Shown here piece after piece: positions 3,474 to 23,526 of a DNA stretch of 60,363 bases. The position numbers and the translations under genes were made by a program. This DNA comes from Candidatus Hydrothermales bacterium (GTDB taxonomy: Bacteria > Hydrothermota > Hydrothermia > Hydrothermales > JAJRUZ01): assembly GCA_039630575.1 (NCBI GenBank), contig JBCNUW010000011.1:1-60363 (forward strand), read 5' to 3'. The notes below the pieces were generated by a model. It saw only the letters and a program-made list of their open reading frames with translations, made no database searches and was not told the DNA's origin. Position 1 is the first letter of the stretch. Every line of letters starts with the position of its first letter.

Positions 3474-3488
3474 AGGGACTTGAACCCT
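3474..3488 (-). terminator. T-arm-like hairpin followed by a U-rich tract (possible weak terminator or processing site)
   Basis: Minus strand reads AGGG-TTCAAGT-CCCT then TTTCTT, just after the octaheme stop codon. Confidence 0.4.
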
Positions 3489-3502
3489 ATTAAACTTTAA
3501 AT

Positions 3503-4546
3503 TTAAAACTGTGGTGGGAGTTTATCAAGAGGTTCACAGAAAAGTATCTGTTTCAAATCTGCTTCATCCTTTAAATGCACCCATTTACCTTCCTCATCCT
3601 TTGTTACATAGGAAAGTTTTAAAGCATCTCTCCAATTACCAGGAACTGGAATAGTCCCTTTGCTATACTTCAACTTAAGTGAATCAGCTAACCATCTAAC
3701 TAAAGTCATTGTTCCAGATGAATTATACTCCTGAACAAAGGAATTTCTATGGCATTCATCACATATTGTTGAAGGATCTGGTTTATAAACTGTATGTCCA
3801 TAAAAAGGTGCAACCACCACAAATGCCTTTCCTTGATAAGTTATGGTCATAATATTCCCAGCTGAAACTTTTCCGTTCCTCTTAACAAGAAACTTCCAAT
3901 TGTGAAACCTTCCATAAGCTACTTTTTGTCCAAGATTTACCTCTGATTCAAAGTGGCAATTATAACAGGTAACTACACTTTTAACATGACAGGCTGAACA
4001 ATCAAGTTCATCATCATTTCTATCAGTAAGACTTTTGAGATGAGTATTATGGGCAGTGGTTGAAGGTAGTGTTGTATGACAGTCATAACAATTTACATGT
4101 ATTGCACCCTCAAACATTGAGTTATAAGATTTCCCGTCTCCGTGAACATCTTCCTCATCATGGCATTTAGCACAAACAAATCCCTGGCTTTTGTGAACAT
4201 CAGTATATCCTAAGGCAATTTCAGCCTTTTGTCTTCCATGGCAGTTAAGACAGGAATTATCAGTAGGAACATCACCTTCCTTTGAATGACATGTACCACA
4301 ATTATTAGGATCAACATGACAATTTTTGCAGGCAAGGTTCTCGTAAGGAATCCCAGTTAAATTTTCGAAACCTCCATTCTGTGCTGAATAAAAATAAGCC
4401 ATCCCAGCAGTTGTATAATGAAGAGAAGTAGAAAGCAACTCCGCTGGAGAAGGAGGAGATGGAAGAGTAGGACAAACCTCTTTCTTCTTACAACCTACTG
4501 ACACTATTAAAAATATAATACCAAAACTTATTATCCTCCCTAACAC
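3503..4546 (-). CDS. Octaheme c-type cytochrome lipoprotein
   Basis: 8 CxxCH motifs, lipobox IVSVG-C followed by KKK and a Pro-rich tether, GTG start with AGGAG SD. Confidence 0.9.
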   Translation of the reverse strand: MLGRIISFGIIFLIVSVGCKKKEVCPTLPSPPSPAELLSTSLHYTTAGMAYFYSAQNGGFENLTGIPYENLACKNCHVDPNNCGTCHSKEGDVPTDNSCLNCHGRQKAEIALGYTDVHKSQGFVCAKCHDEEDVHGDGKSYNSMFEGAIHVNCYDCHTTLPSTTAHNTHLKSLTDRNDDELDCSACHVKSVVTCYNCHFESEVNLGQKVAYGRFHNWKFLVKRNGKVSAGNIMTITYQGKAFVVVAPFYGHTVYKPDPSTICDECHRNSFVQEYNSSGTMTLVRWLADSLKLKYSKGTIPVPGNWRDALKLSYVTKDEEGKWVHLKDEADLKQILFCEPLDKLPPQF

Positions 4547-4619
4547 CTTTTACGCTCCTTTTTTATTTTGGACTTGAACCAATATTAATAAATTTTTTAA
4601 AAAATTATTTTCTTAATTT

Positions 4620-4648
4620 ATTATAAACAAAAAAAATTTTCCTGTCAA
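4620..4648 (-). promoter_or_regulatory. Consensus sigma70 promoter of the cytochrome cluster
   Basis: TTGACA (4648-4643), 17-nt spacer, TATAAT (4625-4620) on the minus strand. Confidence 0.85.
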
Positions 4649-4861
4649 GTGGATGTTTGATTTGATAACATTTTTAAATTTTGAAATTCACCGTAATACC
4701 CCTTTAATATAAGCAAAAAAGAAGTTCTCTTATTACTCTGCCTTTAATAGTCCATGAAAATATGAAAAATTAGAACTACTTAAACTTCCTATAAAAGTTT
4801 CACAAATTCTTTTTTACTACAATGCCTAAACTATTTTAATTTTTTTATTTTTCCAAAAATT

Positions 4862-5032
4862 TTATACACCTATATAATTACCGAGAATAGAAAAAATGCC
4901 AATTATCATAAGTATCCAAGGCCAGTCTCTTTTCAAGCTCCAGAATGACAAAAAACCAAGCTCAAAAAACCATATAAAAAGCCCTAAAATTATTAAAAAC
5001 ATTCCTGTATTCCTTTTATCTACCTCCTTCAA
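4862..5032 (-). CDS. Small two-TM protein, LiaF-TM/DUF5668-like (not in ORF track)
   Basis: Manual translation: (M)KEVDKRNTGMFLIILGLFIWFFELGFLSFWSLKRDWPWILMIIGIFSILGNYIGV*. Shows the G-x-x-LI-x-x-G and WP-x-IL-x-x-x-G pattern. Start is TTG 5032 or ATG 5002. Confidence 0.65.
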   Translation of the reverse strand: MKEVDKRNTGMFLIILGLFIWFFELGFLSFWSLKRDWPWILMIIGIFSILGNYIGV

Positions 5033-5039
5033 TTATGTT

Positions 5040-5325
5040 TTAGTCAATCAATATCTTAACATTAGAACCATCTTGTGTTTCAAAGTTTCAATTTCTCCTT
5101 GTGTTCTTTTATGGCAATTAATTTACCCCTTTTATCTTTGGTTATAAATATCAACAAATCTATAAAAACCATCGGTATGGTTACATTTATCCTTTTAACC
5201 TTTCAACATCTCAAATTTTACTTTTAAAAACTTTTTTTAAATTTTTATTCTGAATAGCAAAAACTTCTTAAAAAGCTCCTTAGCTTCTTTTAGCCCTTAA
5301 TTTCCTATCCGCTTTGACAAATTTT
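5040..5325 (-). pseudogene. Decayed SHOCT-like (YvlB/DUF2089-operon type) gene remnant
   Basis: Fragments broken by stops and frameshifts: DRKLRAK, KEAKELFKK, KKFLKVKF, KRINVTIP, FETQDGSNVKILID*. Confidence 0.4.
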
Positions 5326-5341
5326 TTTTAGAAAATAATTT

Positions 5342-6292
5342 CTAAATTTTTTCTTTAACTATGAAAGGTTTTCTGTTTTGTGATTCAAAGTAATTCCTTA
5401 TTAAAATTTCCATCAAAAGTCCTGTGAGTATAAGTTGAATAGAAGGAATTAAAAAAATAATGGCAATTATAGTTTTAAAATTTTTAAAAATTTCTAACTT
5501 TAAAAAAAAGAAATCGTAAAAAGCCCAAAATAAAAAAATAATACCTAAAAAAATAAAAATTAACCCAAAAATACCAAAAAAATGCATTGGCTTTAAAAAA
5601 TAATCTCCCATAAATTTAACAGTCAATAGATCCAACAAAACTTTAAAAGTCCTTTTAAGTCCATACTTACTTTTTCCCTTGAACCTTTTATTATGTTTAA
5701 CCTCCACTTCTTTTAACTTTGCTCCCTGATAAACACAGAGAGCTGGTAAAAAACGATGCATTTCCCCATAAAGCCTTAAACTCTTTATAACTTCACTTTT
5801 ATACGCTCTTAAAGTGCATCCGTAATCTTTTAATTTTATACCAGTAATAAAGGATATCAAAAAATTCGCAATTCTTGAAGGCAAAACCTTAGTCAAAAAT
5901 GGATCTTTCCTCTTTTTTCTTAAACCACTTACAACATCATAACCCTTTTCAAGTTCCTTCAATAAAACCTCAATATCTTCGGGATCATTCTGTAAATCTG
6001 CATCTAATGTTATAACAATATCTCCAGTCGCTTCCTCAAAACCAGCATATAATGCCAGTGTTTGTCCAAAATTTCTTGCAAACCTTATTCCCTTTACTTT
6101 ACTATCTTTCAACTTTAACTTTTTTATAATTTCCCAAGAACTATCTTTACTTCCATCATCTACAAATATTATCTCATAATTTTCTATAGATTTTTTTTCC
6201 AAAAAATCTTTCAATCTAAAATAAAGGGTTTCAAGATTTTCTTCCTCATTAAATACAGGAATGACAATTGATATAAAACTTTTAAAACCCAT
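5342..6292 (-). CDS. GT2 polyprenol-phosphate glycosyltransferase (ArnC/GtrB-like)
   Basis: SIVIPVFNEEENL, VDDGSKD, RNFGQ, LDADLQNDP, two C-terminal TM helices. Confidence 0.93.
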   Translation of the reverse strand: MGFKSFISIVIPVFNEEENLETLYFRLKDFLEKKSIENYEIIFVDDGSKDSSWEIIKKLKLKDSKVKGIRFARNFGQTLALYAGFEEATGDIVITLDADLQNDPEDIEVLLKELEKGYDVVSGLRKKRKDPFLTKVLPSRIANFLISFITGIKLKDYGCTLRAYKSEVIKSLRLYGEMHRFLPALCVYQGAKLKEVEVKHNKRFKGKSKYGLKRTFKVLLDLLTVKFMGDYFLKPMHFFGIFGLIFIFLGIIFLFWAFYDFFFLKLEIFKNFKTIIAIIFLIPSIQLILTGLLMEILIRNYFESQNRKPFIVKEKI

Positions 6293-7244
6293 TGCAACAT
6301 TTACAGTTTTTCTCGTGCCACTTTAAAAAACTTTCTATACCTTCTTCAAGAGAAGTTAGAGGTTTATAATTTAAAATCTTTTTTGCTTTCTCTATATTAG
6401 CATAGGTCTTTTTAACATCACCTATAGGAAGAGGCTCAAGTAAAACTTTTGCCTTTTTTCCTAATAACTTTTCAATTATACCTATAACTTTTAAAATTGA
6501 TACAGGCTTAGAACTCCCCAAATTAATTATATCAAAATCAAAATCTTTTAATTGAAATGAATTTATTATTCCATTAACAACATCATCAACATAAGTGTAA
6601 TCTCTTTTTGTCCTTCCCTCTCCAAAAACTTCTATTTCTTCACCTCTTAAAATTTTCTTTGTAAAACTATGAATAGCCATATCGGGTCTCTGAGAAGGAC
6701 CATAAACTGTGAAAAGTCTAAGTATCAAAACTTTTATTCCATAGAGTCTATTATAGGTTTCACAAAGAATTTCTGCAGCTCTCTTTGAAAAACCATAAGG
6801 AGAAACCGGAACAATATCCTTATCACTCTCAGAAAACTTACCCCTTTTATTTCCATAAACAGAAGAGGAGGAAGCAAAAATTAACCTTATTTTGCTATTC
6901 CTTATATTTTCAAGCAAAGTTAAAGTTCCTTTAACGTTAATTTCAAGATACTCAAAGGGAGTCACAATTGAAGCCCTCACTCCAGGTCTTGCTGCAAGAT
7001 GCACTATAACTTCCGGATCTTCTTCTAAAATTATCTTTTTCATATTCTCTCTACCAAGAATGTTAGCTTCATAAAATTTAAAATTTTTAAAATTAAATAA
7101 ACTCTCAAGATTTCTCTTTTTTAAAGAAATATCATAGTAGGGATCAAAATTATCAACACCTACTACCTCATAACCAAGTTCAAGAGTTTTTAAAGATAAA
7201 TTACTACCAATAAAACCGGCAACTCCTGTAATTAAAATTTTCAA
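6282..7244 (-). CDS. NAD-dependent epimerase, UDP-glucuronate 4-epimerase-like
   Basis: ITGVAGFIG, HLAARPGVRAS, ASSSSVYG, YGFSK, FTVYGP.QRPDMA. Confidence 0.88.
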   Translation of the reverse strand: MKILITGVAGFIGSNLSLKTLELGYEVVGVDNFDPYYDISLKKRNLESLFNFKNFKFYEANILGRENMKKIILEEDPEVIVHLAARPGVRASIVTPFEYLEINVKGTLTLLENIRNSKIRLIFASSSSVYGNKRGKFSESDKDIVPVSPYGFSKRAAEILCETYNRLYGIKVLILRLFTVYGPSQRPDMAIHSFTKKILRGEEIEVFGEGRTKRDYTYVDDVVNGIINSFQLKDFDFDIINLGSSKPVSILKVIGIIEKLLGKKAKVLLEPLPIGDVKKTYANIEKAKKILNYKPLTSLEEGIESFLKWHEKNCKCCNGF

Positions 7245-7296
7245 ACTTAAGAATTATACTTTATTTTTAACCTTAATTTAAAATATATTAACTTTT

Positions 7297-8286
7297 ATGA
7301 ACATTTTTAGACCTATTAAAAATATTTTCTTTTTTAGATGGGAAGGACTTGGTGATCTTATTCTTGATACTCCACTTTTTAGAATAATTAAAGAAAACAT
7401 AAAGAATGCAAGGTTAACTGTTATAACCTCACCTAAAAATAGAGAAATCCTTTTTTATAATCCCTTTGTAGACTTCATTTTACCAAAGAAAATTCTCTTA
7501 GAAGTATTTTTTAAAAAATGTGATCTTTTTATTGATATGATGGGTAACGCAAGGACCCTTTTTTTATTTTTAATTTTAAAACCTCCCCTTAGATTGGGAT
7601 TTCAAAAAAAATTGCCTTTTTTAAATCTAAAAGTTCCTTTTGAGGCAACTTTGGATTACACTATAAAACATAGACTTAGACTTTTAAAAATACTAAATAT
7701 AAAAAACATTCCTGAAAACCCTCTCCCTGAAACTTACTTAAGCGAAAAGGAAGAGAAAAAATTCAAAGAAAAATTTAAAAACATAATTAAATATGATTAT
7801 GTAACAATTTTTCCATATGCTAAGGGAAAAGTAAGAAACTTCAAAGAAAACCTTTACTCATATTTAAACGATAAACTAATAGAAAAAAGTAAAAAGGTAA
7901 TTTTTATCTTTACAAAAGAAGGCTTAAAAAAATTTGAAAAAATAAAAAAACTCTGTAGAAAAGAGCCTCAATATATACTTTCACCAAACTTAAGGGAGCT
8001 TATCTTTCTTTTAAAATATTCCAAACTATACATAGGACCTGATACAGGACCAAAACATATAGCCGTTTCACAAAACACTAAAACTTTAACATTTTTTACC
8101 CATACAAATCCCATAAACTGGACTCCCAGCAATTATGAAACTCATAAATACATTACACCCGAAATAGATTGCCATCCATGTGAAACAAAAAATTTAAACT
8201 TTTGTAAAAGAAGAGATTTTAAGTGCCTTTCACTCTTTGATCATGAAAAAATTTTTGAAATTTCATTAGAATTATTAAAAAAATAA
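7297..8286 (+). CDS. GT9 LPS heptosyltransferase family protein
   Basis: GLGDLIL, GPDTGPKHIA, CHPC motifs. Confidence 0.88.
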   Translation: MNIFRPIKNIFFFRWEGLGDLILDTPLFRIIKENIKNARLTVITSPKNREILFYNPFVDFILPKKILLEVFFKKCDLFIDMMGNARTLFLFLILKPPLRLGFQKKLPFLNLKVPFEATLDYTIKHRLRLLKILNIKNIPENPLPETYLSEKEEKKFKEKFKNIIKYDYVTIFPYAKGKVRNFKENLYSYLNDKLIEKSKKVIFIFTKEGLKKFEKIKKLCRKEPQYILSPNLRELIFLLKYSKLYIGPDTGPKHIAVSQNTKTLTFFTHTNPINWTPSNYETHKYITPEIDCHPCETKNLNFCKRRDFKCLSLFDHEKIFEISLELLKK

Positions 8287-9715
8287 AGATTAAAAAGTAA
8301 AGTATATCAATTAAATTTCCATACCTTGTATAGAAGGTTTTGTAATCAAAAATTTTTACATCTGAGACCAAAACGCCTCTTTTAAAGAGAGGAATCTCCT
8401 TTAAAACTTTTCCCTTCTCATCAACAATACAACTTATTCCACTCCTTGCTGATCTTACAATATACCTTCTGGTCTCAACTGCCCTAAAAATCGCAAGATC
8501 TCTATGTACCCTTGGACCAAGTGATTTTCCAAACCAGCCGTCACTTGTTATGTTTATAAGTAAATTTGCTCCCTTTTTAACAGCCTCTCTTGAAATCTCT
8601 GTAAAAATTGATTCAAAACAAATTGGAACAAAAACAAAAAAATCCTCGATCTTAAAAATCCTCAATTCTTTTCCTCTGAAAAAGTTACCCTGACCAAAAT
8701 CAAGTTTTCTAAGTATTGGAAAAATCTCATCAAAAGGTAAAGCTTCACCAAAAGGTGTAAGATGAGTTTTATGATAAAAGTCAACAAGATTTCCTTCCTT
8801 GTCAACTAAAAAGGCTGTATTAAATGACCTATATTTTCCCTTTACAAGTTGGGCATCGGCATTTCCAAAAATTAAATAAGAACCCGTTTTTTTTACGAAC
8901 TTGCTTACTATTTGAATAACATTAGTATCAAACCTTGCAAAAGATGGTATTGAAGATTCAGGAAATACAGATAGTAAAGTGCCCCTTACAGCAAGAGAAT
9001 CATAGATTTTTTCAGATATTTTAAACTCTTCGTCTCTGTTATAACTCAAAGGTATATTGGGCTGATAAACTGAAACAGAAACTACTTTAATAGGTCTCAA
9101 ATCTTTTTTTAGAAGAAAATACCCAAAAATCAAAGATGAAAGAATAAGAAAAAAAGAAAGGAAAATATATTTTTTCTTTGCTTTATAAATTAAAAAATTA
9201 ATTAAAACAATAAAAAAGGTAATAAAAAATGGGCCAAAAAATTCAGTTAATTGAATTAAAGGTAAATTGTTCTTTTGAGTTAAAAAAAGAACAATCCAAG
9301 GAAACCCTATATCTGTCTTTGACCTTATTATTTCAAGAATAGTATAAATCAACGGAATCAAAACATAAGAGAATTTTTCTTTAATAAATTTTTTGAAAAA
9401 AAAAGTAAATAAACCAAAATAAATTCCATGACCAATAAAAATTAAAAATACACCAACTGTTATCCAGAAATAAGCTTCTTTTTCTATCTCTCTTAAATTA
9501 AAGATCCAGTTTAACTGAAAGAAAGAAAAAATTGTTCCAAAGATAAAACCTGTTAAAAAAGCTTTTTTTATATTTTCAGTTAATATAAAAATAGGGACAA
9601 AAGCAATGAAGGCAAAGGGGAAAAAATAAAAGGGAGGAAAGGAAATAAGTAATAAAAAAAGAGAGAGAAAAAAAAGAAAAAAATTTTTAAACTTTAATTT
9701 TTTCAATAATTTCAA
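8219..9715 (-). CDS. lnt: Apolipoprotein N-acyltransferase
   Basis: Multi-TM N-terminus, GFPW, QPNI, catalytic E/K/C in FPES, YHKTHL.PFGE, ICFES; RAVETRR. Start codon uncertain. Confidence 0.93.
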   Translation of the reverse strand: MKLLKKLKFKNFFLFFLSLFLLLISFPPFYFFPFAFIAFVPIFILTENIKKAFLTGFIFGTIFSFFQLNWIFNLREIEKEAYFWITVGVFLIFIGHGIYFGLFTFFFKKFIKEKFSYVLIPLIYTILEIIRSKTDIGFPWIVLFLTQKNNLPLIQLTEFFGPFFITFFIVLINFLIYKAKKKYIFLSFFLILSSLIFGYFLLKKDLRPIKVVSVSVYQPNIPLSYNRDEEFKISEKIYDSLAVRGTLLSVFPESSIPSFARFDTNVIQIVSKFVKKTGSYLIFGNADAQLVKGKYRSFNTAFLVDKEGNLVDFYHKTHLTPFGEALPFDEIFPILRKLDFGQGNFFRGKELRIFKIEDFFVFVPICFESIFTEISREAVKKGANLLINITSDGWFGKSLGPRVHRDLAIFRAVETRRYIVRSARSGISCIVDEKGKVLKEIPLFKRGVLVSDVKIFDYKTFYTRYGNLIDILYFLIFIFLIILMKFQKFFHDQRVKGT

Positions 9716-10670
9716 GAATCTTTATTCCATCATCAATTTTAAACCTTGGATTTTCAACTTTGTTTATTGAATTAACAAAATTCTCAAGTAATAAATCAAA
9801 GGAAAGCCTATAGAAACTTTTTTCTTCAGTAATCCTAGGTGTTATATCTATCAGATGACCAAAGTGTTTCTGAACAATTCTGAAAGGTGTAAGATAGGCA
9901 TTCCCCTTTTCACAATAAATCTCAATCTGGAATCTGTCACTATCTATAAAGGGATCCCACAAAACTTCTATAAAAACACTTAAATTATTCTTAAGATCCA
10001 AGTAAAGGGTACCCTCCCATTCAATTCCTGTGCTTTCATTTTTTCTAAAAAATTTAAGGAAATTTGTTGGTTCTGTCTTAAAATAAAAATAATATATTTC
10101 AAAAATATGAATAAGCACAGAATGATAAATTGAGCCAGCATAATTTGGATCCTGTAACCAGTAAGGTCCTGAGAATTCAATTCTTTTTCTTCTTCTTATA
10201 AACTTTGTATGTATTATATCTCCAAGAACTTTCTTCTCAAAGACAATCTCTTTAATTTTTAATATATCTGGCCTAAAAGAATAATTCATAGCAGGCATAT
10301 ATATCCTGTTTGTATCACTAATTTTTTTCTTTAACTCCAAAGCCTCCTCAAGTTTCAATGAAACTGGAAGTTCACAGAGAGTATGTTTTCCATAAGTGAT
10401 GGACGCAAGTGACATAGGATAGTGAAGATGGTTAGGTGTAGTTATTATAACTGCATCTACATTCTTATCTGACAGTAAATCTTCAAAATCAGTATAAATT
10501 ACCTCTGCACCATGAATTTCTTTCGCCTTATATAATTTTGCTTCATCTAAATCACATAAAGCATAGAGATTTATCCTCTCTTTTAATCTCTTTATTGAAG
10601 GTATATAACCTGTCTGTGCTATATGACCAACACCAATTATCCCAACGTTTATCCTTTTACCCTCTTCCAC
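9687..10670 (-). CDS. Gfo/Idh/MocA family oxidoreductase
   Basis: VGIIGVG.IA, DAVIITTPNHLH, GKHTLCELP (EKP motif altered to ELP). Confidence 0.88.
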   Translation of the reverse strand: MEEGKRINVGIIGVGHIAQTGYIPSIKRLKERINLYALCDLDEAKLYKAKEIHGAEVIYTDFEDLLSDKNVDAVIITTPNHLHYPMSLASITYGKHTLCELPVSLKLEEALELKKKISDTNRIYMPAMNYSFRPDILKIKEIVFEKKVLGDIIHTKFIRRRKRIEFSGPYWLQDPNYAGSIYHSVLIHIFEIYYFYFKTEPTNFLKFFRKNESTGIEWEGTLYLDLKNNLSVFIEVLWDPFIDSDRFQIEIYCEKGNAYLTPFRIVQKHFGHLIDITPRITEEKSFYRLSFDLLLENFVNSINKVENPRFKIDDGIKILEIIEKIKV

Positions 10671-12663
10671 CCCTTATCTCCTCCTCGATCATTTTAATTT
10701 TATCAGAAATAACTCTGCACTCGTTGATTCCACTCTCTATCTTTTTAATATAGGAATTGATCTCTTTAAGATCCTCAATAAGTTCCTTCATTCTCTGTGT
10801 GCCCGATTCAGCCTCCTGTAACTCCTCACCAATCAACCTTATAACCTCTGAAAGTTTTGTTACTGAACTTTCAAAAAAAAGCGGCATATTCTCAATCTTG
10901 GGTAAAAGCTCAACAGTATTAGTAAGTACTTCTCTTTCTCTTTTTTCAGATTCTAAAAATCTTTCAAAACTTTTTTCAAGTAAACTTTCATACTCACCTA
11001 TATAACTCCTTGTATTTTCAAGTATTTCACTAAATGAAACAAATTCCTGAGTTAGTCTACTTATAACATTTTCAACAGATTGCGCAAGACTACCTATCTC
11101 TCCGGCAATGATTGAAAAACCTCTTGCTTCTTCTCCTAATCTAGTTGCTTCAATGGACGCATTAAGTGAAAGAAGTCTTGTTTTACTTGCATAATCCTTC
11201 ATAAATTCAACAAAACCGTGAATCTTTTCTATAAGGGAAATTGAAGATAGAATATTTTCTTTTAATTTCCTGAACTCTCCTTTTAACCTATCCATACTTT
11301 CCTCTACGTTTTTCAGGGAAAAAAGAATAGTTTGAATCTGAGGTCTTTTTCCTCTGAAAAAAGAAGCAAAAAAAGAAATTTCATCTTTTGCTTTCTCAAA
11401 TTCCTGTGCTATAAGCTCAAGAATATCAAAATTTTTCCTTATTTTTTCAGAAATATCACTGAAGGATCCTTCAGTTTGAGAAAGAGAAAAATTAAATTTT
11501 GTAACATGAGAAGTGAACTTGTTAAGAATCTCACACACTGTTTTTGTTTTACTTACAATATCTTCGGAAAGATGGGGAAGTTCCTGAATATAAAGATAAA
11601 TCAAAATTATCCTTGCTACCAAGTTAGAAACCATAATGAATCTTTCTCTATCATCTTCTGAAAAATTGTCTTCAATCTTTGATTCAAAAGAAAGTAAACC
11701 ACTCAATTTTTTATCCTTGTAAAAAGAAATCAAAAATACAGATAAAGTATTAGGGGAAAAAAACTCATACTTTTTTTCAATTTTCTTTATGTAGACTTTT
11801 TCGTTTACACCAACCATATCAAGAATACCTGTTGAGAAAGTCTTCTCCAAATACTCCTTCTCATCTGCATAGGCACATTTAATTTTTCCATCTTCTTTTA
11901 CAAAAATTTTCATGTGATCAAAATCAATATATTCCTTCAAGAGATTAAACATATTACTGAAAAATTTTTCCATTGAAAAATCTTGTGTAACAAGTGCCTC
12001 TGTGCGATATAGAATTGAGAGTTTATCTAAATTAAGATAATCTCTGAGAACCAATATACTCATAAATATAAGCGGCAAAAGAAATATTATCCCCCAAAAA
12101 TTTTTATTTTTTATAAGATCATAAAACAAAAAAATAAAAACCATGTAAAAAAATATAAGTCCCACCTCTTTTGCTAAAGTATATAAATGAATTTTTAAAT
12201 TTACTTTTTTTCTAATAAAAATAGGTAAATAGAAAAAGATAGGATATAAAAGTGGAGAAACAACTAAAAAAATTAAAATATTTACCCTTTCTGTAGGAAG
12301 TTCTATATACCTTATTAAACTTAAAAAAAGGGCACCTGAAAGGTAAGAAAGAGAGGTGTGAACGATATTTAAAAATCTATCTTTAAGAATAAAAAGACCA
12401 AATAGAAAAACTCCAAAAAAGGAAGCTAATGATCCTGAAATAGGGGAGATATAAGAAGAAAAAGCAGCAGCCACAGGACAAAATGTAAAGAAATAAAAAT
12501 GCCTCAATGGAAATCTAAAAAACCTCAATAAAAATACTGCAAAAAAAGTAATTAAGAAAATAGGTAAAGAAAAAACACTCTCTCCCTTAATACTTAAAAG
12601 ATAAGAGTGTAAAATTAAAAGAAAAATTGTAAGTCCAAAATAAAGGTAAATATAAAAAACCAT
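10657..12663 (-). CDS. Multi-TM, GAF-containing methyl-accepting chemotaxis-like protein
   Basis: About 6-7 hydrophobic segments, GAF-like SVFLISF...GLLSFESK...FSEDD, MCP tip TRLLSLNASIEATRLGEEARGFSIIAGEIGSLA. Confidence 0.78.
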   Translation of the reverse strand: MVFYIYLYFGLTIFLLILHSYLLSIKGESVFSLPIFLITFFAVFLLRFFRFPLRHFYFFTFCPVAAAFSSYISPISGSLASFFGVFLFGLFILKDRFLNIVHTSLSYLSGALFLSLIRYIELPTERVNILIFLVVSPLLYPIFFYLPIFIRKKVNLKIHLYTLAKEVGLIFFYMVFIFLFYDLIKNKNFWGIIFLLPLIFMSILVLRDYLNLDKLSILYRTEALVTQDFSMEKFFSNMFNLLKEYIDFDHMKIFVKEDGKIKCAYADEKEYLEKTFSTGILDMVGVNEKVYIKKIEKKYEFFSPNTLSVFLISFYKDKKLSGLLSFESKIEDNFSEDDRERFIMVSNLVARIILIYLYIQELPHLSEDIVSKTKTVCEILNKFTSHVTKFNFSLSQTEGSFSDISEKIRKNFDILELIAQEFEKAKDEISFFASFFRGKRPQIQTILFSLKNVEESMDRLKGEFRKLKENILSSISLIEKIHGFVEFMKDYASKTRLLSLNASIEATRLGEEARGFSIIAGEIGSLAQSVENVISRLTQEFVSFSEILENTRSYIGEYESLLEKSFERFLESEKREREVLTNTVELLPKIENMPLFFESSVTKLSEVIRLIGEELQEAESGTQRMKELIEDLKEINSYIKKIESGINECRVISDKIKMIEEEIRGGRG

Positions 12664-13775: not shown

Positions 13776-13781
13776 TAAGAT

Positions 13782-15827: not shown

Positions 15828-17089
15828 TTAGTTTTTAAAAGAAAAAATAAAGTCATTAAAAGTAAAATTAAACCGTTAACGAATATTATTTTGGAAACGT
15901 AAATATACTCAGCAAGTATACCAAAAATATAGGACAAAATAAGAAATAAACTGTTTACAAGTAATTCTTTGCTTGCAAAAATTCTGCCCCTTAATTCTTT
16001 AGGCACATTTTCATGCAAAAGTGTATCTTGAAAAATTGTAACAGATGAAAGTATAAATCCACCGAAAAAGGAAAAAATCCCGATATAAAGAAATCTTTTC
16101 AAAAAAGAGAAAAAGATTAACAAAAAGGAAAGTAAAATAAAAGAGTATTTAATAACAGCTTTTCTATCCCATTTATCACCAAAGGAACCTAACAAAAAAG
16201 CACCTGAAACCATACCAAGAGCTGTTAATGCTCCAAGTTTTCCAACACCTGTAGTTCCATATCCGAGGAATTGTTGAACCAAGATTACAATTAATACATA
16301 GACATTAGCTCCAATAAAAACAAGGAAAAAGAGGGAAAAAAGTACAAATGAAACATTTTTATCCTTTAAAATTAAATGTAGGGCATCTTTTAGATCAGCT
16401 ATAGCCTTTTGGAAATAATTCTTTTCTTCCTCAATTATTAATTTTTTAAGATCCTCTTTTTTTATTTTTCTTTCATCAGGTATTGTGATAAAAATTAAAA
16501 GTAAACCTGAAATTATAAAAGTTAGGGCGTCTAAGTAAAAACCAGCTTGCCAACCCTCAATACCAAAATTTTTCCATATTTCCCAATCAACTATTAACCC
16601 TCCCACAAAAAGACCTAAAACAGTAGCAAGCCTTCCCGCTAAAGTTGCAAGAGAATTTGCTGCCAAAATTTCATCCTTAGACTTAAGCAAACTGGGAACG
16701 ATTGCCATTTTTGTAGCATTGTAAAGAACACCTATTAAAAAAACAAAAAAAACAATTATATACATTGGAAATATATGTCTAAAAAATAAAACAGTTAAAG
16801 GGATCATAAAAACAAGAAAACCTCTTAAAAAATCACCTAACACAAGAATGACTTTTCTATTCATCCTATCGGCTATTATTCCTGCAATCGGACCAAATAT
16901 TACCCCGGGTATTGTGAAAAAGAAGGCAAGATGAGAAAAGGCAACTGAATGTCCAAAAGCTCTAGCCTTCAAAAGAGCTATCAAAGAGATATGATCTAGT
17001 TTGTCCCCAATAAGGGAAATTGTCTGTGCGAAAGAGTATAAAAGGAAGTTTCTATTTCTTATAACCTTTGTTATTCCTTTATTTTTCAA
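15824..17089 (-). CDS. MFS transporter
   Basis: About 12 TM helices, motif A GIIADRMNRK, ELRGRIFA. Confidence 0.9.
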   Translation of the reverse strand: MKNKGITKVIRNRNFLLYSFAQTISLIGDKLDHISLIALLKARAFGHSVAFSHLAFFFTIPGVIFGPIAGIIADRMNRKVILVLGDFLRGFLVFMIPLTVLFFRHIFPMYIIVFFVFLIGVLYNATKMAIVPSLLKSKDEILAANSLATLAGRLATVLGLFVGGLIVDWEIWKNFGIEGWQAGFYLDALTFIISGLLLIFITIPDERKIKKEDLKKLIIEEEKNYFQKAIADLKDALHLILKDKNVSFVLFSLFFLVFIGANVYVLIVILVQQFLGYGTTGVGKLGALTALGMVSGAFLLGSFGDKWDRKAVIKYSFILLSFLLIFFSFLKRFLYIGIFSFFGGFILSSVTIFQDTLLHENVPKELRGRIFASKELLVNSLFLILSYIFGILAEYIYVSKIIFVNGLILLLMTLFFLLKTK

Positions 17090-18230
17090 TTTTTACACTT
17101 TCCTTAACTTCAAAATAGTAAGACTCAACTTCATCAACAATTTTATTCCATGAAAATTTTTCAACCGCTTTTTTTCTTCCATTTTCTCCCATTTTTACTC
17201 TTAAATTTTCATTTTTTAAAAGATAAATAATTTTATCAGCTAACATTTCTGGACTTTCAGGCTTAACAAGAAAACCTTCTTTACCATCTTCAAGCACAAA
17301 CCTATAACCCTCTATATCTGAAGCTACAACAGGAACTGAAGAAGCCATAGCCTCAAGAAGAACAATACCGAAAGATTCGTACCCTATGGCAGGGGAGCAA
17401 AAAACATGGGAGCTAGCATAAATTTTTGGCAGCTCTTCAAAAGAAATTCTTCCCAAAAAAGTAACATTATCCTTCAAATAAAACTTAGATTTTTGCTTTT
17501 CTATACCGAAGAGAGGGCCTGTTCCAACTGCTACAAGATGAGCATCCTTTACTTCTTTTATTACCTTACAAAAGGCTTTTCTTAAGTATTTAAACCCCTT
17601 TCTTTTTTCAAATCTACCAACAAAGAGAACAATTTTTTTACCTTTTGGTATTAGAGAAGAAGAATCCTTTTTTGAAGGGTTAAATCTATCAACATCAACA
17701 CCATTAGGAATTATTCTGTATTCACCACCAAAATGCCTTTTGATTGAATCTCTTGCACTTGGAGAAACAGCTATTTTACCATGGATTTTATCAAAAACTT
17801 TTACCAAATATCCCTTAAATAATTCATATAACCTTGAGGGATCATGTGTTGCATGGAATGTAGAAAAGTTATGAGTGTTTGAATATTTAAGTGAGTAATA
17901 GGGCATAAATGGAGCAATTGGACCATGTGTATGGATAATATCAAAATTACCATTAAGGATTATATCTTTTACTTTTTTACTTCCTCTTGCGGTAAGGGTT
18001 ATTCTGCCAACTGATTTATTAAAAAAAATAGGAATTGCTCTTCCTATTCTGATTACATTTTCTTCATCTTTATAGTCAGGAAAATTATTTTTACTGTAAC
18101 CACTTGTTATGATATAAACTTCATGTCCTCTTCTTTCAAGTTCTCTTCTTAAGTGGTATATATGTTCTGATATGCCTCCTAAATAGGGATAGTATATATC
18201 GGAGGCAATTAGAATTTTAAGTTTTTTCAT
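17079..18230 (-). CDS. GT4 glycosyltransferase (PimA-like)
   Basis: GGISEH, IIPNGVD, FVGRFEKRKG, ESFGIVLLEAMA. Confidence 0.9.
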   Translation of the reverse strand: MKKLKILIASDIYYPYLGGISEHIYHLRRELERRGHEVYIITSGYSKNNFPDYKDEENVIRIGRAIPIFFNKSVGRITLTARGSKKVKDIILNGNFDIIHTHGPIAPFMPYYSLKYSNTHNFSTFHATHDPSRLYELFKGYLVKVFDKIHGKIAVSPSARDSIKRHFGGEYRIIPNGVDVDRFNPSKKDSSSLIPKGKKIVLFVGRFEKRKGFKYLRKAFCKVIKEVKDAHLVAVGTGPLFGIEKQKSKFYLKDNVTFLGRISFEELPKIYASSHVFCSPAIGYESFGIVLLEAMASSVPVVASDIEGYRFVLEDGKEGFLVKPESPEMLADKIIYLLKNENLRVKMGENGRKKAVEKFSWNKIVDEVESYYFEVKESVKIEK

Positions 18231-19422
18231 ACTTTACTTCTCTAAACTTCTTTATTCCTTCTAAGAAGATGTTTAATGCGAGTTCCAATTTAGATGAATT
18301 TAAAACAAAAGCAATTCTCACTTCTGTTTCACCTTTACCTTTTGTCACATAGAAACCGTTTCCTGGTGCTACCATGGTTGTTTTTTTATTGATTTCAAAT
18401 TCGCTTAATAGAAAACAGGTAAACTGGTCACTGTTTATACTTTTGAGGTCAACCATAGTATAAAAGGCTCCTTGAGGCTCAAAGGTAAAAATTAGATCAG
18501 AATTTAAAAGGATTTTCATAGATTTTTCTATTCTTCTCTCATACTCCTCTTTAGCTTCTTCAATAAATCTATCCTCCTTATTTATTACTTCAGCACAGGC
18601 ATACTGTTCAATAATTGGGGCGGATAATCTGGCTTGCAATAGTTTTAAAATATTTTCTCTTAAAGTTTTATTTCTTGTCACAATACATCCAATCCTTGCG
18701 CCACATAAGGAATATCTCTTTGATACCGAATCAGCTACGATTCCAAAATCAGAAGCTTCTTCAAATTCTAAAATAGAATAATGTTTATGACCGCGGTAAA
18801 CAAACTCTCTGTAGACCTCATCGGCTATTATAAAGAGTTTATGTTTTTTTGCAAGTCTTATAAGCATTTCAATTTCTTCCCTTGAATAAACTTTACCGGT
18901 AGGATTGTTGGGATTTGCATAAACGATGGCTCTTGTTCTTGAATTTATATATTTCTTTATCTCTTTTTCTGAAGGAAGTCTGAAATTATCTTTTATAAAG
19001 GTAGGTACAGGAACAAGTTTAACACCTGCGATTCTTGCAAAGGTATTGTAATTTGTGTAAAATGGTTCAAAAACAATTATTTCTTTTCCTTCATCAGCAA
19101 CACTAAAAAAGGAAAAAATTAAAGCTTCGCTCCCCGCAGTTGTTATCATCACATCATCAGGAGAAATATTATATCCTTTTCTTTTATAATAATTATACCA
19201 TGCTTCTTTTAGCTCAGGTATGCCATCTGAAGGTCCATAACCGATTATTTCCTTATCAAACTCTCTTATTGCCTTAAAAAAAGTCTCAGGAGCTTTTATA
19301 TCAGGCTCACCAATGTTCAAATGAAAAACTTCAATCCCTCTTTTTTTTGCTTCAATTGCGTAGGGATAAAATTTTCTTATTGGAGAATATTGAGCTAATC
19401 GAACTCTCTTTGATATTCTCAT
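18217..19422 (-). CDS. PLP-dependent aminotransferase class I/II
   Basis: HLNIGEPD, NPNNPTG, DEVYREF, SVSKRYSLCGARIG. Confidence 0.93.
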   Translation of the reverse strand: MRISKRVRLAQYSPIRKFYPYAIEAKKRGIEVFHLNIGEPDIKAPETFFKAIREFDKEIIGYGPSDGIPELKEAWYNYYKRKGYNISPDDVMITTAGSEALIFSFFSVADEGKEIIVFEPFYTNYNTFARIAGVKLVPVPTFIKDNFRLPSEKEIKKYINSRTRAIVYANPNNPTGKVYSREEIEMLIRLAKKHKLFIIADEVYREFVYRGHKHYSILEFEEASDFGIVADSVSKRYSLCGARIGCIVTRNKTLRENILKLLQARLSAPIIEQYACAEVINKEDRFIEEAKEEYERRIEKSMKILLNSDLIFTFEPQGAFYTMVDLKSINSDQFTCFLLSEFEINKKTTMVAPGNGFYVTKGKGETEVRIAFVLNSSKLELALNIFLEGIKKFREVKYEKT

Positions 19423-19454
19423 TGCAATAATTTAAAAAGATAGGAATCGAACCA

Positions 19455-19769
19455 TTATAGGGATTTTAAATGCTTTTTAAGTGATTCTATTTTATCAGTA
19501 GGCTTTACATCCTTATCTCTTCTTTCATCAATTTTAATGATGGTTGAAACCCTTTTTGCTCCCATCTTAAACATCTCTTCTTGCATTTCAATAATTGCTT
19601 CAAATATTTTTTGTTTATCACCATAAAGAATAGTAAACATAGGATCTGTATCATGCTCTATATCTTTATACTTTTCAAGAACCTTTAAAGCTTGTGCAAC
19701 AAACTCAGACAGGGAAGTTGATCCAGTGCCAATAGGGGTAATACTTATAGCCGCAATTACTTTTTTCAT
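19455..19769 (-). CDS. MTH1187/YkoF-like thiamine-binding family protein
   Basis: ISITPIGT..TSLSEFVA, PMFT, RVSTIIKIDERRDK. Confidence 0.9.
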   Translation of the reverse strand: MKKVIAAISITPIGTGSTSLSEFVAQALKVLEKYKDIEHDTDPMFTILYGDKQKIFEAIIEMQEEMFKMGAKRVSTIIKIDERRDKDVKPTDKIESLKKHLKSL

Positions 19770-19808
19770 ATAAAGATTATAATTCTAAAAGATTAATAAA
19801 GCAAATTA

Positions 19809-20165
19809 CTATTTTTCTTCCTTTTCTCCTTCTATAGGTAAAAGAGGAGAAGTTTCCTCTTTGGGAGCTTCTTCAGAGAAAAGGGGGACTAATTCAAAAA
19901 CATTACCTCTATTTAAAACTTCCCTTTTTTCAGGAAAGCTTGCTTTTGATGTTAATGCTATTAGTATTGCAAGTAGCCCAATGAAAGCTCCAAGACCCCA
20001 TGTTAATTTCTGAAAAAAAGTCGGAGCACCTCTTACTCCAAGAAAATCCTGAGCACTTCCACCCAAAAAGGCCCCAATACCTCTTCCTCTGGGTTGCTGA
20101 ACAAGTATTACAGCTATAAGAATTATTACCAAAAGAACATGTAAAAAAATCAAAAAGCCAATCAT
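19809..20165 (-). CDS. secG: Preprotein translocase subunit SecG
   Basis: ILVQQPRGRGIGAFLGG...FFQKLT; located downstream of tpiA. Confidence 0.92.
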   Translation of the reverse strand: MIGFLIFLHVLLVIILIAVILVQQPRGRGIGAFLGGSAQDFLGVRGAPTFFQKLTWGLGAFIGLLAILIALTSKASFPEKREVLNRGNVFELVPLFSEEAPKEETSPLLPIEGEKEEK

Positions 20166-20926
20166 TTTGTATATTTTAAGGCTATTTTGACAAGTTTTGC
20201 AAAAGTATCACCACTTAAAGAGGATCCTCCTACAAGACCACCTGAGATTTCCTCAAAGCAAACAAGAGAATCAAAATTTTCAGGTGTAATACTCCCGCCA
20301 TAAAGAACTTTTATTTCAGAATCAAATTTTTCTTTAATTAATTTTATAATAAACCTGTGAGCAGAAAGAGCTTGATCACTTGTTGCAACTCTACCAGTTC
20401 CGATTGCCCAAACTGGTTCATAGGCAACTTTTATTTTGTTTAACTTCTTTTTTTCGAGAAATTTAAAACCACTTAATATTTGATTTTCAATAACTTTTTC
20501 AGTTTCACCTTTTTCCCTTTCCTCAAGTGTTTCTCCAACACAGAAAACAACTTCAAAATCTTGTTCTAATGCCTTTTTTAATTTTCTTTGAAGAATTTCT
20601 TCATCCTCCTTAAATATTTTCCTTCTTTCTGAGTGTCCTATAATTACAGATTTTATTTCCAAATCTTTTAGATGTAGTGGAGAAATTTCTCCTGTAAAGG
20701 CTCCTTTTTCTTCATAAAACACATTTTGAGCACCAATTTCAATTTCAGTTCCTGAAAACACTTTTTTTGCGTAAAAAAGATGGGTAAAGGGTACAAAGAT
20801 CTTAATTTCAACATTCTCTTTATTCTCTACACTTTCTTTATAAACTTTAAAAAATTCCCTTTTCCATTTTCTTATGTCCTCTTTAAGCATATTCATCTTC
20901 CAATTAGCAAAGATAAACTTTTTCAT
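20162..20926 (-). CDS. tpiA: Triosephosphate isomerase
   Basis: NWKMN, GAFTGEIS, GHSERR, AYEPVWAIGTG, YGGS. Confidence 0.97.
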   Translation of the reverse strand: MKKFIFANWKMNMLKEDIRKWKREFFKVYKESVENKENVEIKIFVPFTHLFYAKKVFSGTEIEIGAQNVFYEEKGAFTGEISPLHLKDLEIKSVIIGHSERRKIFKEDEEILQRKLKKALEQDFEVVFCVGETLEEREKGETEKVIENQILSGFKFLEKKKLNKIKVAYEPVWAIGTGRVATSDQALSAHRFIIKLIKEKFDSEIKVLYGGSITPENFDSLVCFEEISGGLVGGSSLSGDTFAKLVKIALKYTK

Positions 20927-20931
20927 AAGTT

Positions 20932-21543
20932 TTAACCTCCTTTTAAAATAGATTTTATTGGTTCAAAAGTTTTTCTATGTAAAGGTGAAATTCCTATCTT
21001 TTTTATCATATCAACATGAAAGTCAGAGTAATAACCTTTATTTATATCAAATCTATATTCAGGATACATTTCACTGATTGCTTCCATCCATCTGTCCCTT
21101 GTGACTTTAGCAATTATACTTGCTCCAGCTATTACATCAATTCTCCTATCTCCCTTTATAAGAGCTATCTGTCTTATCTTTAAATTCTTAACTTTAAAAC
21201 CATCTACAAGGACTAAATCTGGTCTTATAGGTAAATTTTCTATAGCTTTTTTTATCACAGTAAAATTTGCATTCTGAATTCCCAAATTATCAATCTCTTC
21301 AGGAAAAACAAATGATATTCCGAATTTAATATTCTTTTCTAATAATCTGTCAAGAATTTTTTCTCTTGCTTCAGGTTTTAATAGTTTTGAATCCTTAACA
21401 AACAAAATATTTGTATCTTCTGGTATGTACAAGGCACAAGCAACTATGGGGCCTGCAAGAGAGCCTCTTCCTGCTTCATCAACTCCCACTGGTCTTTTTG
21501 GATTTACACCTACTCTCTCTAAGAATTTATAAACATTTTCCAA
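20932..21543 (-). CDS. rnhB: Ribonuclease HII
   Basis: GVDEAGRG, DSK, KGD, ASIIAKVTRD, HRKTF. Confidence 0.95.
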   Translation of the reverse strand: MENVYKFLERVGVNPKRPVGVDEAGRGSLAGPIVACALYIPEDTNILFVKDSKLLKPEAREKILDRLLEKNIKFGISFVFPEEIDNLGIQNANFTVIKKAIENLPIRPDLVLVDGFKVKNLKIRQIALIKGDRRIDVIAGASIIAKVTRDRWMEAISEMYPEYRFDINKGYYSDFHVDMIKKIGISPLHRKTFEPIKSILKGG

Positions 21544-21544
21544 C

Positions 21545-21919
21545 TTATTTTAGCTCTTTTATTTTAGCTTTCTTACCTTTCTTGCCTCTTATCCAGAATA
21601 TCTTTGCCTTTCTCACTTTTCCCCTTTTCAAGACCTCTACCTTCTCAATAAAAGGAGAATGAACTAAAAAAGTTCTTTCCACACCAATCCCCTGGGTAAC
21701 TCTTCTTACTGTGAAAGTTTCAGATAGTCCCGAACCTCTTCTTTCGAGAACAATTCCTTCAAAAGGCTGAATTCTTGTTTTTTCAACCATCTTTTTTGTC
21801 TTAGGATCTTCCTTAAGTTCTGTTATTTTTACATGAACCCTAACAGTATCACCTGCTTTAAATTCAGGAACATCCTTTTTCAAAAATTTCTCCTCTACTT
21901 TTTTCAAAAGGGTTTTCAT
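21545..21919 (-). CDS. rplS: 50S ribosomal protein L19
   Basis: F..GDTVRV, FEG, TFTVR, GVERTF, GKVR.AK. Confidence 0.97.
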
Positions 21920-21970
21920 CTTAGTTTGAGTATTTGAAAAGGAGAATAGAACTCCCTTTTAGAAAAACTA

Positions 21971-22699
21971 TTATATTTTCTTTTTTAATTCATTTTCAAT
22001 TTCCCTTAAAAGTAATTTATCCTCCTCTGAAAGTTCAACTTTATCAAGAAGATCTTTTCTTTTAAGTAGTGTTTCTTTTAGGGACTCCTTTTTTAAGTAT
22101 CTTTTTATTTCAGCATGATTTCCCGAGAACAGAATTGTTGGAACTTTTTTACCTTCAAATTCTCGTGGCTTAGTATAAACTGGGTAACCTAATATCCCCT
22201 TTTCAAATGAGTCTTCTTCTCTTGAGTCTATTTCACCCATTGAACCAGGTAGAAGTCTTGAAATGGTGTCTATTATAACATAGGCAGCTGGTTCTCCTCC
22301 TGATAACACATAATCACCGATAGATATTTCTGCATCCACATAACTTCTTATCCTTTCGTCTATTCCCTTATATCTTCCGCATATAAGCACAATACTTTCA
22401 TTTTTTAAGAGAGAGTGAACTAATTTTTGGTTTAAGATTTCACCACGTGCGTCAAGCAAAATTTTAAGGGCATTCTCCTCTATGCTTCTCAATGCTTTTA
22501 CTACAACATCTACCCTAATAACCATACCTCCACCGCCACCATAGGGTCTATCATCAACTTCTTTTGGGCCTTCGGCAAACTTTCTTATATCTATTGCTTT
22601 TAATCTTAGCGAATCTGAAAGAATTGCTCTTTTTATTGGACCAAACTCTTTTATTTTTTCAAAGAAGTCAGGAAAAAGGGTAATTACATATATATTCAT
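21971..22699 (-). CDS. trmD: tRNA (guanine-N1)-methyltransferase
   Basis: ITLFP, VDDRPYGGGGGM, CGRYKGIDER, SIGDYVLSGGE. Confidence 0.97.
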   Translation of the reverse strand: MNIYVITLFPDFFEKIKEFGPIKRAILSDSLRLKAIDIRKFAEGPKEVDDRPYGGGGGMVIRVDVVVKALRSIEENALKILLDARGEILNQKLVHSLLKNESIVLICGRYKGIDERIRSYVDAEISIGDYVLSGGEPAAYVIIDTISRLLPGSMGEIDSREEDSFEKGILGYPVYTKPREFEGKKVPTILFSGNHAEIKRYLKKESLKETLLKRKDLLDKVELSEEDKLLLREIENELKKKI

Positions 22700-23190
22700 T
22701 ATTCAATCAAACATTTTGAATCTACCTTTATAATTTTTTCTCCTTCGTTTATTTCTTTAACATATTTATCTACCCATGGAATTATGTACTCTTTACCCAT
22801 ATCTGACTTAATATAGATTCTTTTAAGAAATTCTGTTTCCTCGATAAAAAAGACAACTCCCAAGTAGCCTAAAGCTATATCATAAACTTTAAAATTAATT
22901 AGATTTTCTCTTTTTTTCTTAATGTTAAAGTTTTTTTTAATGTAAATTATAGTTCCTTTTAGAGATTCTGCTTTATCTTTTGAATCTATTTTTTTGAAGG
23001 AGATTATAAAAGATTTTCCCCCGCGTCTTTCAAAACTTTCTAGCTCAAAGTATCTTTCTTCGCCTTTATAAACAAAATAAAAATTTTTATATTTTTGTAA
23101 TACACTCTCATCTTCAACTAGAAGTCTTGCAAAAAGTTTACCATCTTTTCCGTAACTTTTTTGAATTTTTAAAATTGGAACTTTTTGCAC
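22699..23190 (-). CDS. rimM: Ribosome maturation factor RimM
   Basis: Synteny rpsP-KH-rimM-trmD-rplS; AESLKG, LG.V, IIP.V..YVKEI motifs. Confidence 0.88.
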   Translation of the reverse strand: MQKVPILKIQKSYGKDGKLFARLLVEDESVLQKYKNFYFVYKGEERYFELESFERRGGKSFIISFKKIDSKDKAESLKGTIIYIKKNFNIKKKRENLINFKVYDIALGYLGVVFFIEETEFLKRIYIKSDMGKEYIIPWVDKYVKEINEGEKIIKVDSKCLIE

Positions 23191-23195
23191 TAAAA

Positions 23196-23468
23196 TTAAA
23201 TAGCACTACCGGAACCAGGTTCTATAATATCAAGAAGAGCTCTTTTTCCTTTCTTGGCACCCACTGCACTTACTAAAGTTCTAAGTGCTTGGGCAGTTCT
23301 TCCACCCTTACCAATTATTTTTCCGACATCTGTAGGTCTTACTCTAAGTTCATATATAACAGCCCTTTCTCCTGCCACTTCTTTTACTTCCACAGAATTT
23401 GGCTCATCAACAAGATGTTTAACGATATACTCTATTAGATCCTTAAGTTCAACTTGTGATTCTTTCAT
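23196..23468 (-). CDS. khpA: KH-domain RNA-binding protein KhpA
   Basis: LVDEP, DVGKIIGKGGRTAQALR; GGAGG SD. Confidence 0.93.
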   Translation of the reverse strand: MKESQVELKDLIEYIVKHLVDEPNSVEVKEVAGERAVIYELRVRPTDVGKIIGKGGRTAQALRTLVSAVGAKKGKRALLDIIEPGSGSAI

Positions 23469-23526
23469 TTTTTAACCTCCACCTAAACCAAATTACAGGG
23501 GCTTGAACCCAGTATCCACATCTGTT

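Follow-up and report, generated by a model that had tools for sequence, protein, structure and literature searches.

We report here a short hairpin resembling the T-loop of tRNA, GG-UUCnAnY-CC, that stands at a constrained distance 5' of the start codon in about 7% of the genes of an uncultured WOR-3 family, analysed here from a Candidatus Hydrothermales bacterium, and is probably, as judged by sequence comparison, a new kind of start signal. The stretch of DNA analysed, called the window in the following, comprises 60,363 nt of contig JBCNUW010000011.1 (GCA_039630575.1), and its source genome, labelled G000, has a size of 1.89 Mb and a G+C content of 30%. An original prediction for this window had pointed to five mimics of the tRNA T-arm and had proposed a cis-element system for mRNA processing, stabilisation or modification. 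The element is real and family-wide, and it is very likely functional. We consider it fairly probable that the hairpin acts in cis as a signal for translation initiation, which would dock on the ribosome and replace or add to the Shine-Dalgarno (SD) sequence. Throughout the text the motif is numbered as in tRNA (G52 G53 U54 U55 C56 N57 A58 N59 Y60 C61 C62).

Genes of G000 (1799) were predicted with our own hexamer caller, in which the hairpin was not used. The regions from -150 to +50 of 1732 starts contained 159 matches to GGTTCnAnnCC, tRNAs included, with a peak at -28 to -36 and a sharp inner edge, only one of the 159 being located between -27 and -1. Once the tRNA genes were removed, the motif was found at -46 to -27 in 110 of 1706 genes, while 40 dinucleotide shuffles returned a mean of 0.68 genes and a maximum of 3; antisense matches in the start window were 2. 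The motif density per 100 kb was 320 in the sense start window and 6 in the same window antisense, 8 in other intergenic DNA, and 0.7 and 1.2 in sense and antisense coding sequence respectively, thus confirming on a genomic scale the non-randomness and the strand bias supposed from the five hits. A catalogue of 131 sites was compiled among 255 non-tRNA matches, allowing any Watson-Crick pair at 52-62 and taking the distance range from the unbiased position histogram of GGTTCnAnnCC. At 19 of the 131 sites the called start was shifted to an in-frame start 27-46 nt 3' of G53.

In the catalogue sites without an SD (n=98) the spacer from C62 to the start codon showed a minimum of 17 nt and a median of 21 nt, while in those with an SD (n=33) the corresponding values were 21 and 26 nt (p=1e-10), and the closest SD onset was 8 nt after C62. 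Twenty of the 131 hairpins lie within the last codons of the upstream gene. A promoter was predicted for 53 of the 131, with distances that, outside a group at 4-14 nt, were spread broadly from +5 to -105. As the position of the hairpin is tied to the start codon and shifted by an SD, a role in translation initiation is favoured over processing, stabilisation or modification.

A second line of evidence came from the sister family, represented by genome G006 (1.54 Mb, about 75% of the genome), where 3 non-tRNA motif matches occurred in 1450 genes. Among 945 reciprocal best hits between G000 and G006, from which pairs with discordant starts were dropped, 54 of the 57 G006 orthologues of hairpin genes had an SD, compared with 300 of 540 for the other genes (p=4e-10). 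The SD of G006 was lost in G000 for 39 of these 54 hairpin genes and for 133 of the 300 others (p=2e-4). All five family genomes with an infC gene have the hairpin 5' of it without an SD, and the five sister-family copies show the reverse, with an SD but without a hairpin; rpsU and rpsA have both hairpin and SD in 6/6 family genomes and the SD alone in 5/5 sister genomes. A sister-family bin, G010, holds a second, family-like infC with the hairpin (L081, G010:C31), probably on a contaminating contig. The hairpin mostly replaces and sometimes accompanies the SD, and since it is placed where the sister orthologues have an SD, an initiation role is again favoured. A complement of the motif was searched in three 16S genes of the family and was not found, leaving no linear pairing of the SD type.

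The distribution of the element was evaluated with a strict pattern, which gave 33, 18, 47, 58, 37 and 59 matches in the six family genomes, as against 0-8 for each of the 266 remaining WOR-3 genomes searched; a looser pattern returned 126-215 matches per family genome and 9-51 elsewhere (41 genomes). The supposed restriction of the T-loop element to this lineage is therefore well founded, one WOR-3 family having 18-59 copies per genome. Two genomes of another WOR-3 genus, G178 and G179, showed slightly raised counts (8 and 5). The loops are conserved in orthologous spacers, as had been anticipated, the aminotransferase, rplS and khpA hairpins of the window being kept in G001-G005 while their flanks change. 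In a comparison of G000 with G005 that covered about 14% of the latter and was restricted to 124 orthologue pairs whose starts match, a T-loop was present in both members of 14 pairs (2 of them tRNAs), in G000 alone in 3, in G005 alone in 2 and in neither in 105, so that the hairpin is kept at orthologues in two genera. Metagenome contigs of the same family also carry it, three of them 5' of rpsL and two long ones 5' of tuf as well. These came from a metagenome scan for the hairpin 5' of rpsL that returned at least 119 loci; among the loci listed, 105 had a tRNA at this place, the majority on AT-rich contigs of organelle-like type, and 3 of the 14 others belonged to the same family, a result that does not imply absence in other lineages. 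In these 105 loci (within L349-L467), many of them on such contigs, a tRNA T-arm precedes the rps12 start by 16-36 nt. In a viral scan (at least 120 loci) none of the best 10 loci had several copies unlike tRNA, which does not imply absence elsewhere. In the literature searched, in which few subscription papers were represented, we found no description of the element.

A Pfam scan of 98 of the 131 hairpin genes gave matches for 70. The marked genes encode EF-Tu, IF3, the ribosomal proteins S6, S12, S15, S20, S21, L31 and L32, a hibernation factor, DnaK, GroES, the acyl carrier protein (ACP), a cold-shock protein, GAPDH, the ATP synthase c subunit, two ferritin-like proteins, AhpC and enzymes of central metabolism; by name they include tuf, rplL, acpP, dnaK, infC, rpsU and rpsA. 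Within operons the choice is selective: rpsL and tuf are marked and rpsG and fusA are not, rplL alone is marked in rplK-A-J-L, the c subunit alone is marked in the ATPase cluster with four neighbours unmarked (five genes shown), and none of the 10 genes of the S10 cluster carries the hairpin. Operon genes without a family match were given the names that we take them to have from their sequence. The products of tuf and rplL, like the ATPase c subunit and ACP, are required in excess, and the hairpin marks operon members of this kind and many genes for abundant proteins. The S10 cluster itself (G000:C12:103587-108226) ends after rpmC and is followed by what is presumably an mreB-like gene, the S10-spc block being split.

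Within the window the five T-arm mimics were all found again on the minus strand, where the G53 equivalent of each lies 30-40 nt 5' of a start codon of the same strand, in keeping with the sense orientation attributed to them. The set was nevertheless incomplete, since a sixth copy, AAGG-TTCTAAT-CCTT, had been missed (Table 1). A tRNA-Trp gene was the sole match of an Rfam scan of the window and the sole ARAGORN call; neither program called any of the five hairpins as a tRNA.

Table 1. T-loop hairpins of the window, the genes 3' of them and the genuine T-arm.
Feature	Position	Strand	Remarks
Hairpin 1, 4 bp	3474..3488	-	24 nt 5' of TTG of ArsR/SmtB-family gene (G53 at -34); no SD
ArsR/SmtB-family regulator gene	3113..3451	-	3' of hairpin 1
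Hairpin 2, 4 bp	4568..4582	-	23 nt 5' of GTG of c-type cytochrome-like gene (G53 at -33); SD too
c-type cytochrome-like gene	3503..4546	-	3' of hairpin 2; weak family match below cut-off
Hairpin 3, 2 bp	19443..19453	-	20 nt 5' of ATG of aminotransferase gene (G53 at -30); no SD
Pyridoxal phosphate (PLP)-dependent aminotransferase gene	18217..19422	-	3' of hairpin 3
Hairpin 4, A52-U62 variant	21941..21955	-	23 nt 5' of rplS (G53 at -33); no SD
rplS	21545..21919	-	3' of hairpin 4
Hairpin 5, 3 bp + mismatch + 3 bp	23494..23514	-	30 nt 5' of khpA (G53 at -40); SD too
KH-domain protein gene, khpA-like	23196..23468	-	3' of hairpin 5
Hairpin 6, 4 bp, within last codons of rplJ	53503..53517	-	24 nt 5' of rplL (G53 at -34); no SD
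rplL	53088..53480	-	3' of hairpin 6
tRNA-Trp(CCA), genuine T-arm	56139..56212	-	ARAGORN, Rfam

The TTG start of the arsR-like gene is backed by an alignment from residue 1 with its orthologue in G004, and the G004 orthologue of the cytochrome-like gene has a hairpin with a U55C variant. The stem of the rplS hairpin has 4 Watson-Crick pairs, or 8 when G-U pairs and an A-U extension are counted. In G006 the aminotransferase and rplL genes have a strong SD and rplS has an SD, all three without hairpin; khpA has no hairpin in G006 or in the outgroup locus L004. Two further genes of the window, rpsP (23527-23778) and a MTH1187-family gene (19455-19769), look leaderless, with a -10 box 11-15 nt 5' of the ATG, as do about 17% of the non-coupled genes of G000.

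The anatomy of the element was derived from the catalogue. With the other positions fixed, G52, G53, U54, A58 and C62 were invariant and U55 and C61 varied once each, while C56 was kept in 110 of 124 sites and varied in 14. Position 57 was A in 82 sites, U in 17, G in 6 and C in 5, and position 60 was mainly U or C. The 52-62 pair was swapped to A-U four times and to C-G, of equal stability, at one site as against 123, and the 53-61 pair was never swapped. The 51-63 pair covaries (85 sites paired of 131, 44.6 expected, tRNAs removed); pairs 50-64 (58 and 54.4) and 49-65 (56 and 48.6) showed no significant covariation over the 131 sites, and those from 48-66 to 41-73 were at chance level. An early signal for a full 5-bp T-arm (70 versus 46 and 70 versus 41 for pairs 3 and 4) vanished and was rejected because the first set of 136 upstream hits held 22 real tRNA genes. 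The 7-nt loop UUCnAnY closed by G53-C61 is thus kept, as originally described, while the T-arm stem of 5 bp is not: significant covariation stops at the third pair, giving a stem of about 3 bp. Compared with the tRNA family RF00005, no cloverleaf and no acceptor, D or anticodon arm was found, pairing ending at about 3-4 bp, and the flanks, about 80% A/T, have no acceptor stem and no conserved sequence. No L-shaped D-loop/T-loop fold was found either, and four leader loci gave no Rfam match above the gathering score. The element consists of a T-loop of fixed sequence carried by a marginal stem of 2-4 bp, and since the predicted pairing of such a stem is low, its folding would need a binder or modifications.

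On these grounds we propose that GG-UUCnAnY-CC would fold as a T-loop upon binding to a fixed ribosomal site, on the side of the mRNA exit and the E site, and that the docked T-loop would keep the start codon near the P site, raising initiation. The reach would be about 17 unpaired nt, lengthened to 21 nt by an intervening helix, either an SD duplex or the acceptor stem of a tRNA, because a base adds less length in a helix than in a single strand. A substitute for the SD would be expected to work through the 30S subunit. If the hairpin does dock, the platform proteins bS18, bS6, bS21 and bS1 are the receptor that we tentatively prefer, a tRNA-elbow site at the L1 stalk and E site is possible, and a free adaptor, for example a T-arm enzyme, is doubtful. 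Concerning the platform, the Gly41 of bS18, belonging to the RRxTG motif, is replaced by Lys or Arg in 6/6 family genomes (L099:1459-1671), a lead and not a proof; all 5 sister genomes (5/5) have Gly at this position, and of 150 representatives 133 have Gly and 6 Arg. Further leads are helix h26 of 16S rRNA, which is 1 bp longer in the family and contains 7 of the 34 fixed 16S differences in what is a variable region, and about 3-5 extra C-terminal residues in bS21. A comparison of bS1, bS21, IF3, bS6, uL1 and uS2 revealed no large insertion. Concerning the L1 stalk, loop residues of uL1 contact the T-loop on its two strands within the E site, according to the part of PMC3602588 available. The variation seen at C56 would be easier to reconcile with stacking than with pairing.

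Several observations weigh against an initiation role. The candidate comparisons yielded no demonstrated family-specific receptor, and the anti-SD is intact (3/3 family 16S genes), with SDs still used in 34% of genes; many genes have neither SD nor hairpin, and 9 hairpin genes look leaderless. The predicted probability of the closing pair has a median of 0.085 at 37 °C, which makes the hairpin marginal alone. Both the inner edge and the shift by an SD would also fit simple steric exclusion. Of the 53 hairpins for which a promoter was predicted, 26 are separated from the predicted transcription start by 4-14 nt, a count with no background control that also fits a role at the 5' end, and in G004 the arsR hairpin is found about 60 nt 5' of the gene and is followed by a promoter of the leaderless type. 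The SD exchange was evaluated on one sister genome with our own gene caller, and the kin compared are not independent. Finally, the closeness of tRNA genes to the next ATG is class-wide, with near/far pattern counts, in which hits were not checked as true starts, of 43/20 in the family and 152/78 in 35 other genomes.

The view of an oriented cis-element that mimics a T-loop is upheld by the counts and by the lineage restriction, while processing, stabilisation or modification as its main role is disfavoured by the anchoring to starts and by the SD exchange. It is unlikely that the hairpin acts as a protective or stabilising 5'-end structure near the ribosome footprint, stiffened by tRNA-modifying enzymes and raising the mRNA level instead of initiation. 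The 26 hairpins near predicted transcription starts, the abundance of the encoded proteins and the presence of genes for TruB, TrmFO and TrmI speak for it; however, RNase J was not found in 5/5 genomes searched, the stems are too weak to stop nucleases alone, the loss of SDs would be unexplained, and the hairpins inside upstream coding sequence and the single C-G swap of equal stability are also contrary to it. It is quite unlikely that the element works as tRNA punctuation, in which a tRNA-processing nuclease would cut 3' of the T-loop and the resulting short-leader mRNAs would be translated in a 5'-end-dependent manner. Real tRNA genes do show almost the same spacing to the next start, no SD begins less than 8 nt after C62, leaderless genes are common, and an RNase Z-like gene occurs in 6/6 family and 0/5 sister genomes. 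Its product (245 aa), however, matches model positions 2-148 of 302, below the cut-off, and has about 21 residues at the exosite span, so that no exosite-bearing RNase Z was found; families lacking the element encode close homologues of this protein, which was rejected as the reader of the hairpin for the lack of an exosite and for this occurrence. Moreover, a cut 7-11 nt after C62 would precede the upstream stop codon in 12-15 of the 131 cases, many hairpins are already near a predicted 5' end and, although RNase P RNA is present, there is no acceptor-stem-like pairing for RNase P. The RNase Z-like metallo-hydrolase gene (L224:108-842; G000:C78:10557-11294) is itself leaderless-looking.

As TruB, TrmFO and TrmI are encoded, modification of the hairpin is plausible and, on sequence grounds, likely; it may accompany the initiation role without explaining the element. 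That pseudouridine, 5-methyluridine (m5U) or 1-methyladenosine (m1A) introduced by these enzymes is the function, as a tag read later by another factor, is very unlikely. TruB requires C56, which varies in the sites, and the tag alone would explain neither the spacing nor the SD exchange. No extra or family-specific T-arm enzyme was found, TruB, TrmI, TrmFO and a PF05958 methyltransferase being single-copy both in the family and in the element-free sister family, and truB is present in 11/11 genomes of the order; stand-alone CsaA/Trbp111-like genes occur in 2/11 genomes only. In favour of a tag, the hairpin contains the TRUB1 consensus GUUCNANNC in a stem-loop, as given in the accessible part of PMC5340967, and stem-loops of 3 bp are modified by TruB at 0.3 times its rate on tRNA in the portion available of PMC13492117. 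A site for a transcription factor, or another promoter-proximal DNA element, is highly improbable: the sequence is more fixed than the structure and some copies are near predicted promoters, but the 51-63 pair covaries, the motif is strand-specific and found inside operons, and its position tracks the start codon and the SD and not the -10 box. For this DNA-element explanation the eukaryotic box B consensus provides the comparison. Chance matches or tRNA remnants are hardly credible, as the 22 real tRNA genes of the first set explain a part of the hits, while the excess of 110 over 0.68 was obtained after their removal, in A/T flanks without acceptor stem and with conservation across two genera.

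Real tRNA genes may represent the source of the initiation signal proposed here. In G000, 33 tRNA genes have a co-directional next gene; for 21 of these the distance from C62 to the next start is 21-28 nt, a true SD being present in one case, and in G006 6 of 20 have the next start 17-28 nt after C62. A family-specific closeness was considered on the basis of these counts (p=0.024) and rejected, the near/far ratio being about 2 in the family and in the 35 other genomes alike. As the closeness is class-wide, it is presumably an ancestral trait from which the mimic could plausibly have arisen: a gene lying immediately 3' of a tRNA gene would have used the tRNA as a leader, which the family would have trimmed to the T-loop. 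The G000 set of 46 tRNAs includes Arg tRNAs with GCG and TCG anticodons, no ACG tRNA being called, and most of the tRNA genes listed have no encoded CCA.

Two leaders suggest that the initiation signal might be regulated. The rpsF leader (L099:603-700; orthologues L098, L100-L103) has two predicted folds 4-6 kcal apart in which the T-loop is hidden or shown; in one, its 5' half is buried and a CC-rich internal loop is exposed, and no Rfam match was found. This internal loop recalls the autoregulatory S6:S18 leader. In the rpsA leader (L067:3022-3135; orthologues L064-L066, L068, L070) the T-loop caps a long, minihelix-like outer stem whose sequence changes between genomes, with the SD behind it; elsewhere no T-arm stacked on a 7-bp acceptor stem was found. 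In these models both leaders resemble control by hiding a start signal. A general initiation route, third beside the SD-led and the leaderless ones, in which a minimal tRNA-elbow mimic derived from tRNA-gene leaders docks at a fixed reach and is switched in the rpsF and rpsA leaders like an SD, is a proposal for which we see the case as evenly balanced.

How start sites without an SD are chosen, and with what strength, is a long-standing question in bacteria, and the hairpin may aid start-codon placement in this lineage. The trading of SDs for a structured, putatively tRNA-derived motif at dozens of orthologues in sister families constitutes a natural experiment. If the ribosome reads the hairpin, it would represent genome-wide tRNA mimicry in bacterial initiation and a 15-nt start signal independent of the anti-SD, and likely the natural counterpart of the cis-tRNA effect observed in vitro.

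In that system tRNAs grafted 5' of an SD raise in vitro translation 2-6.3-fold and E-site binding was proposed, as reported in the available part of PMC9142559. The yjdF riboswitch, or cis-tRNA, described there is comparable to the hairpin as read here, being a tRNA-like cis element 5' of the start with direct ribosome binding; in the same part of that work it is a full L-shaped, ligand-dependent aptamer of one locus type, tested with an SD and needing the GG of the D-loop, whereas the hairpin is a bare T-loop of 11-15 nt, without D-loop or ligand domain, at more than 100 genes mostly without SD. With the SD the hairpin shares the fixed distance to the start, the abundant-protein genes and the exchange between sister families, while it stands further upstream (17-36 nt) and has a covarying stem with no linear complement in family 16S rRNA. 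The T-arm substrates of TruB and TRUB1 resemble it in the GUUCNANNC core, the 7-nt loop and the G-C closure, and mammalian TRUB1 sites have a 5-bp stem and are defined by modification (PMC5340967 and PMC13492117, in the parts accessible); the hairpin differs in its stem of about 3 bp, the near-fixed G52-C62, the variable C56 and the position tied to starts. Tobacco mosaic virus provides another mRNA mimic of the tRNA elbow, the histidine-type tRNA-like structure TLS-His, which is located on the L1 stalk and E site and was proposed to aid initiation; according to the portion available of 10.1101/2025.10.12.681957, it is eukaryotic, lies in the 3' untranslated region and shows the whole D/T elbow, including a pair like G19-C56. 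In Bacteroidetes the anti-SD is sequestered by bS21, bS18 and bS6, so that start signals change with platform proteins and the rpsU and rpsR leaders are special; SDs were lost there with no replacing hairpin described in the accessible part of PMC7797042, whereas the WOR-3 family uses SDs and has a new motif. The hairpin falls outside the classes of tRNA, SD, yjdF and nuclease substrate, and would work most like a cis-tRNA activator.

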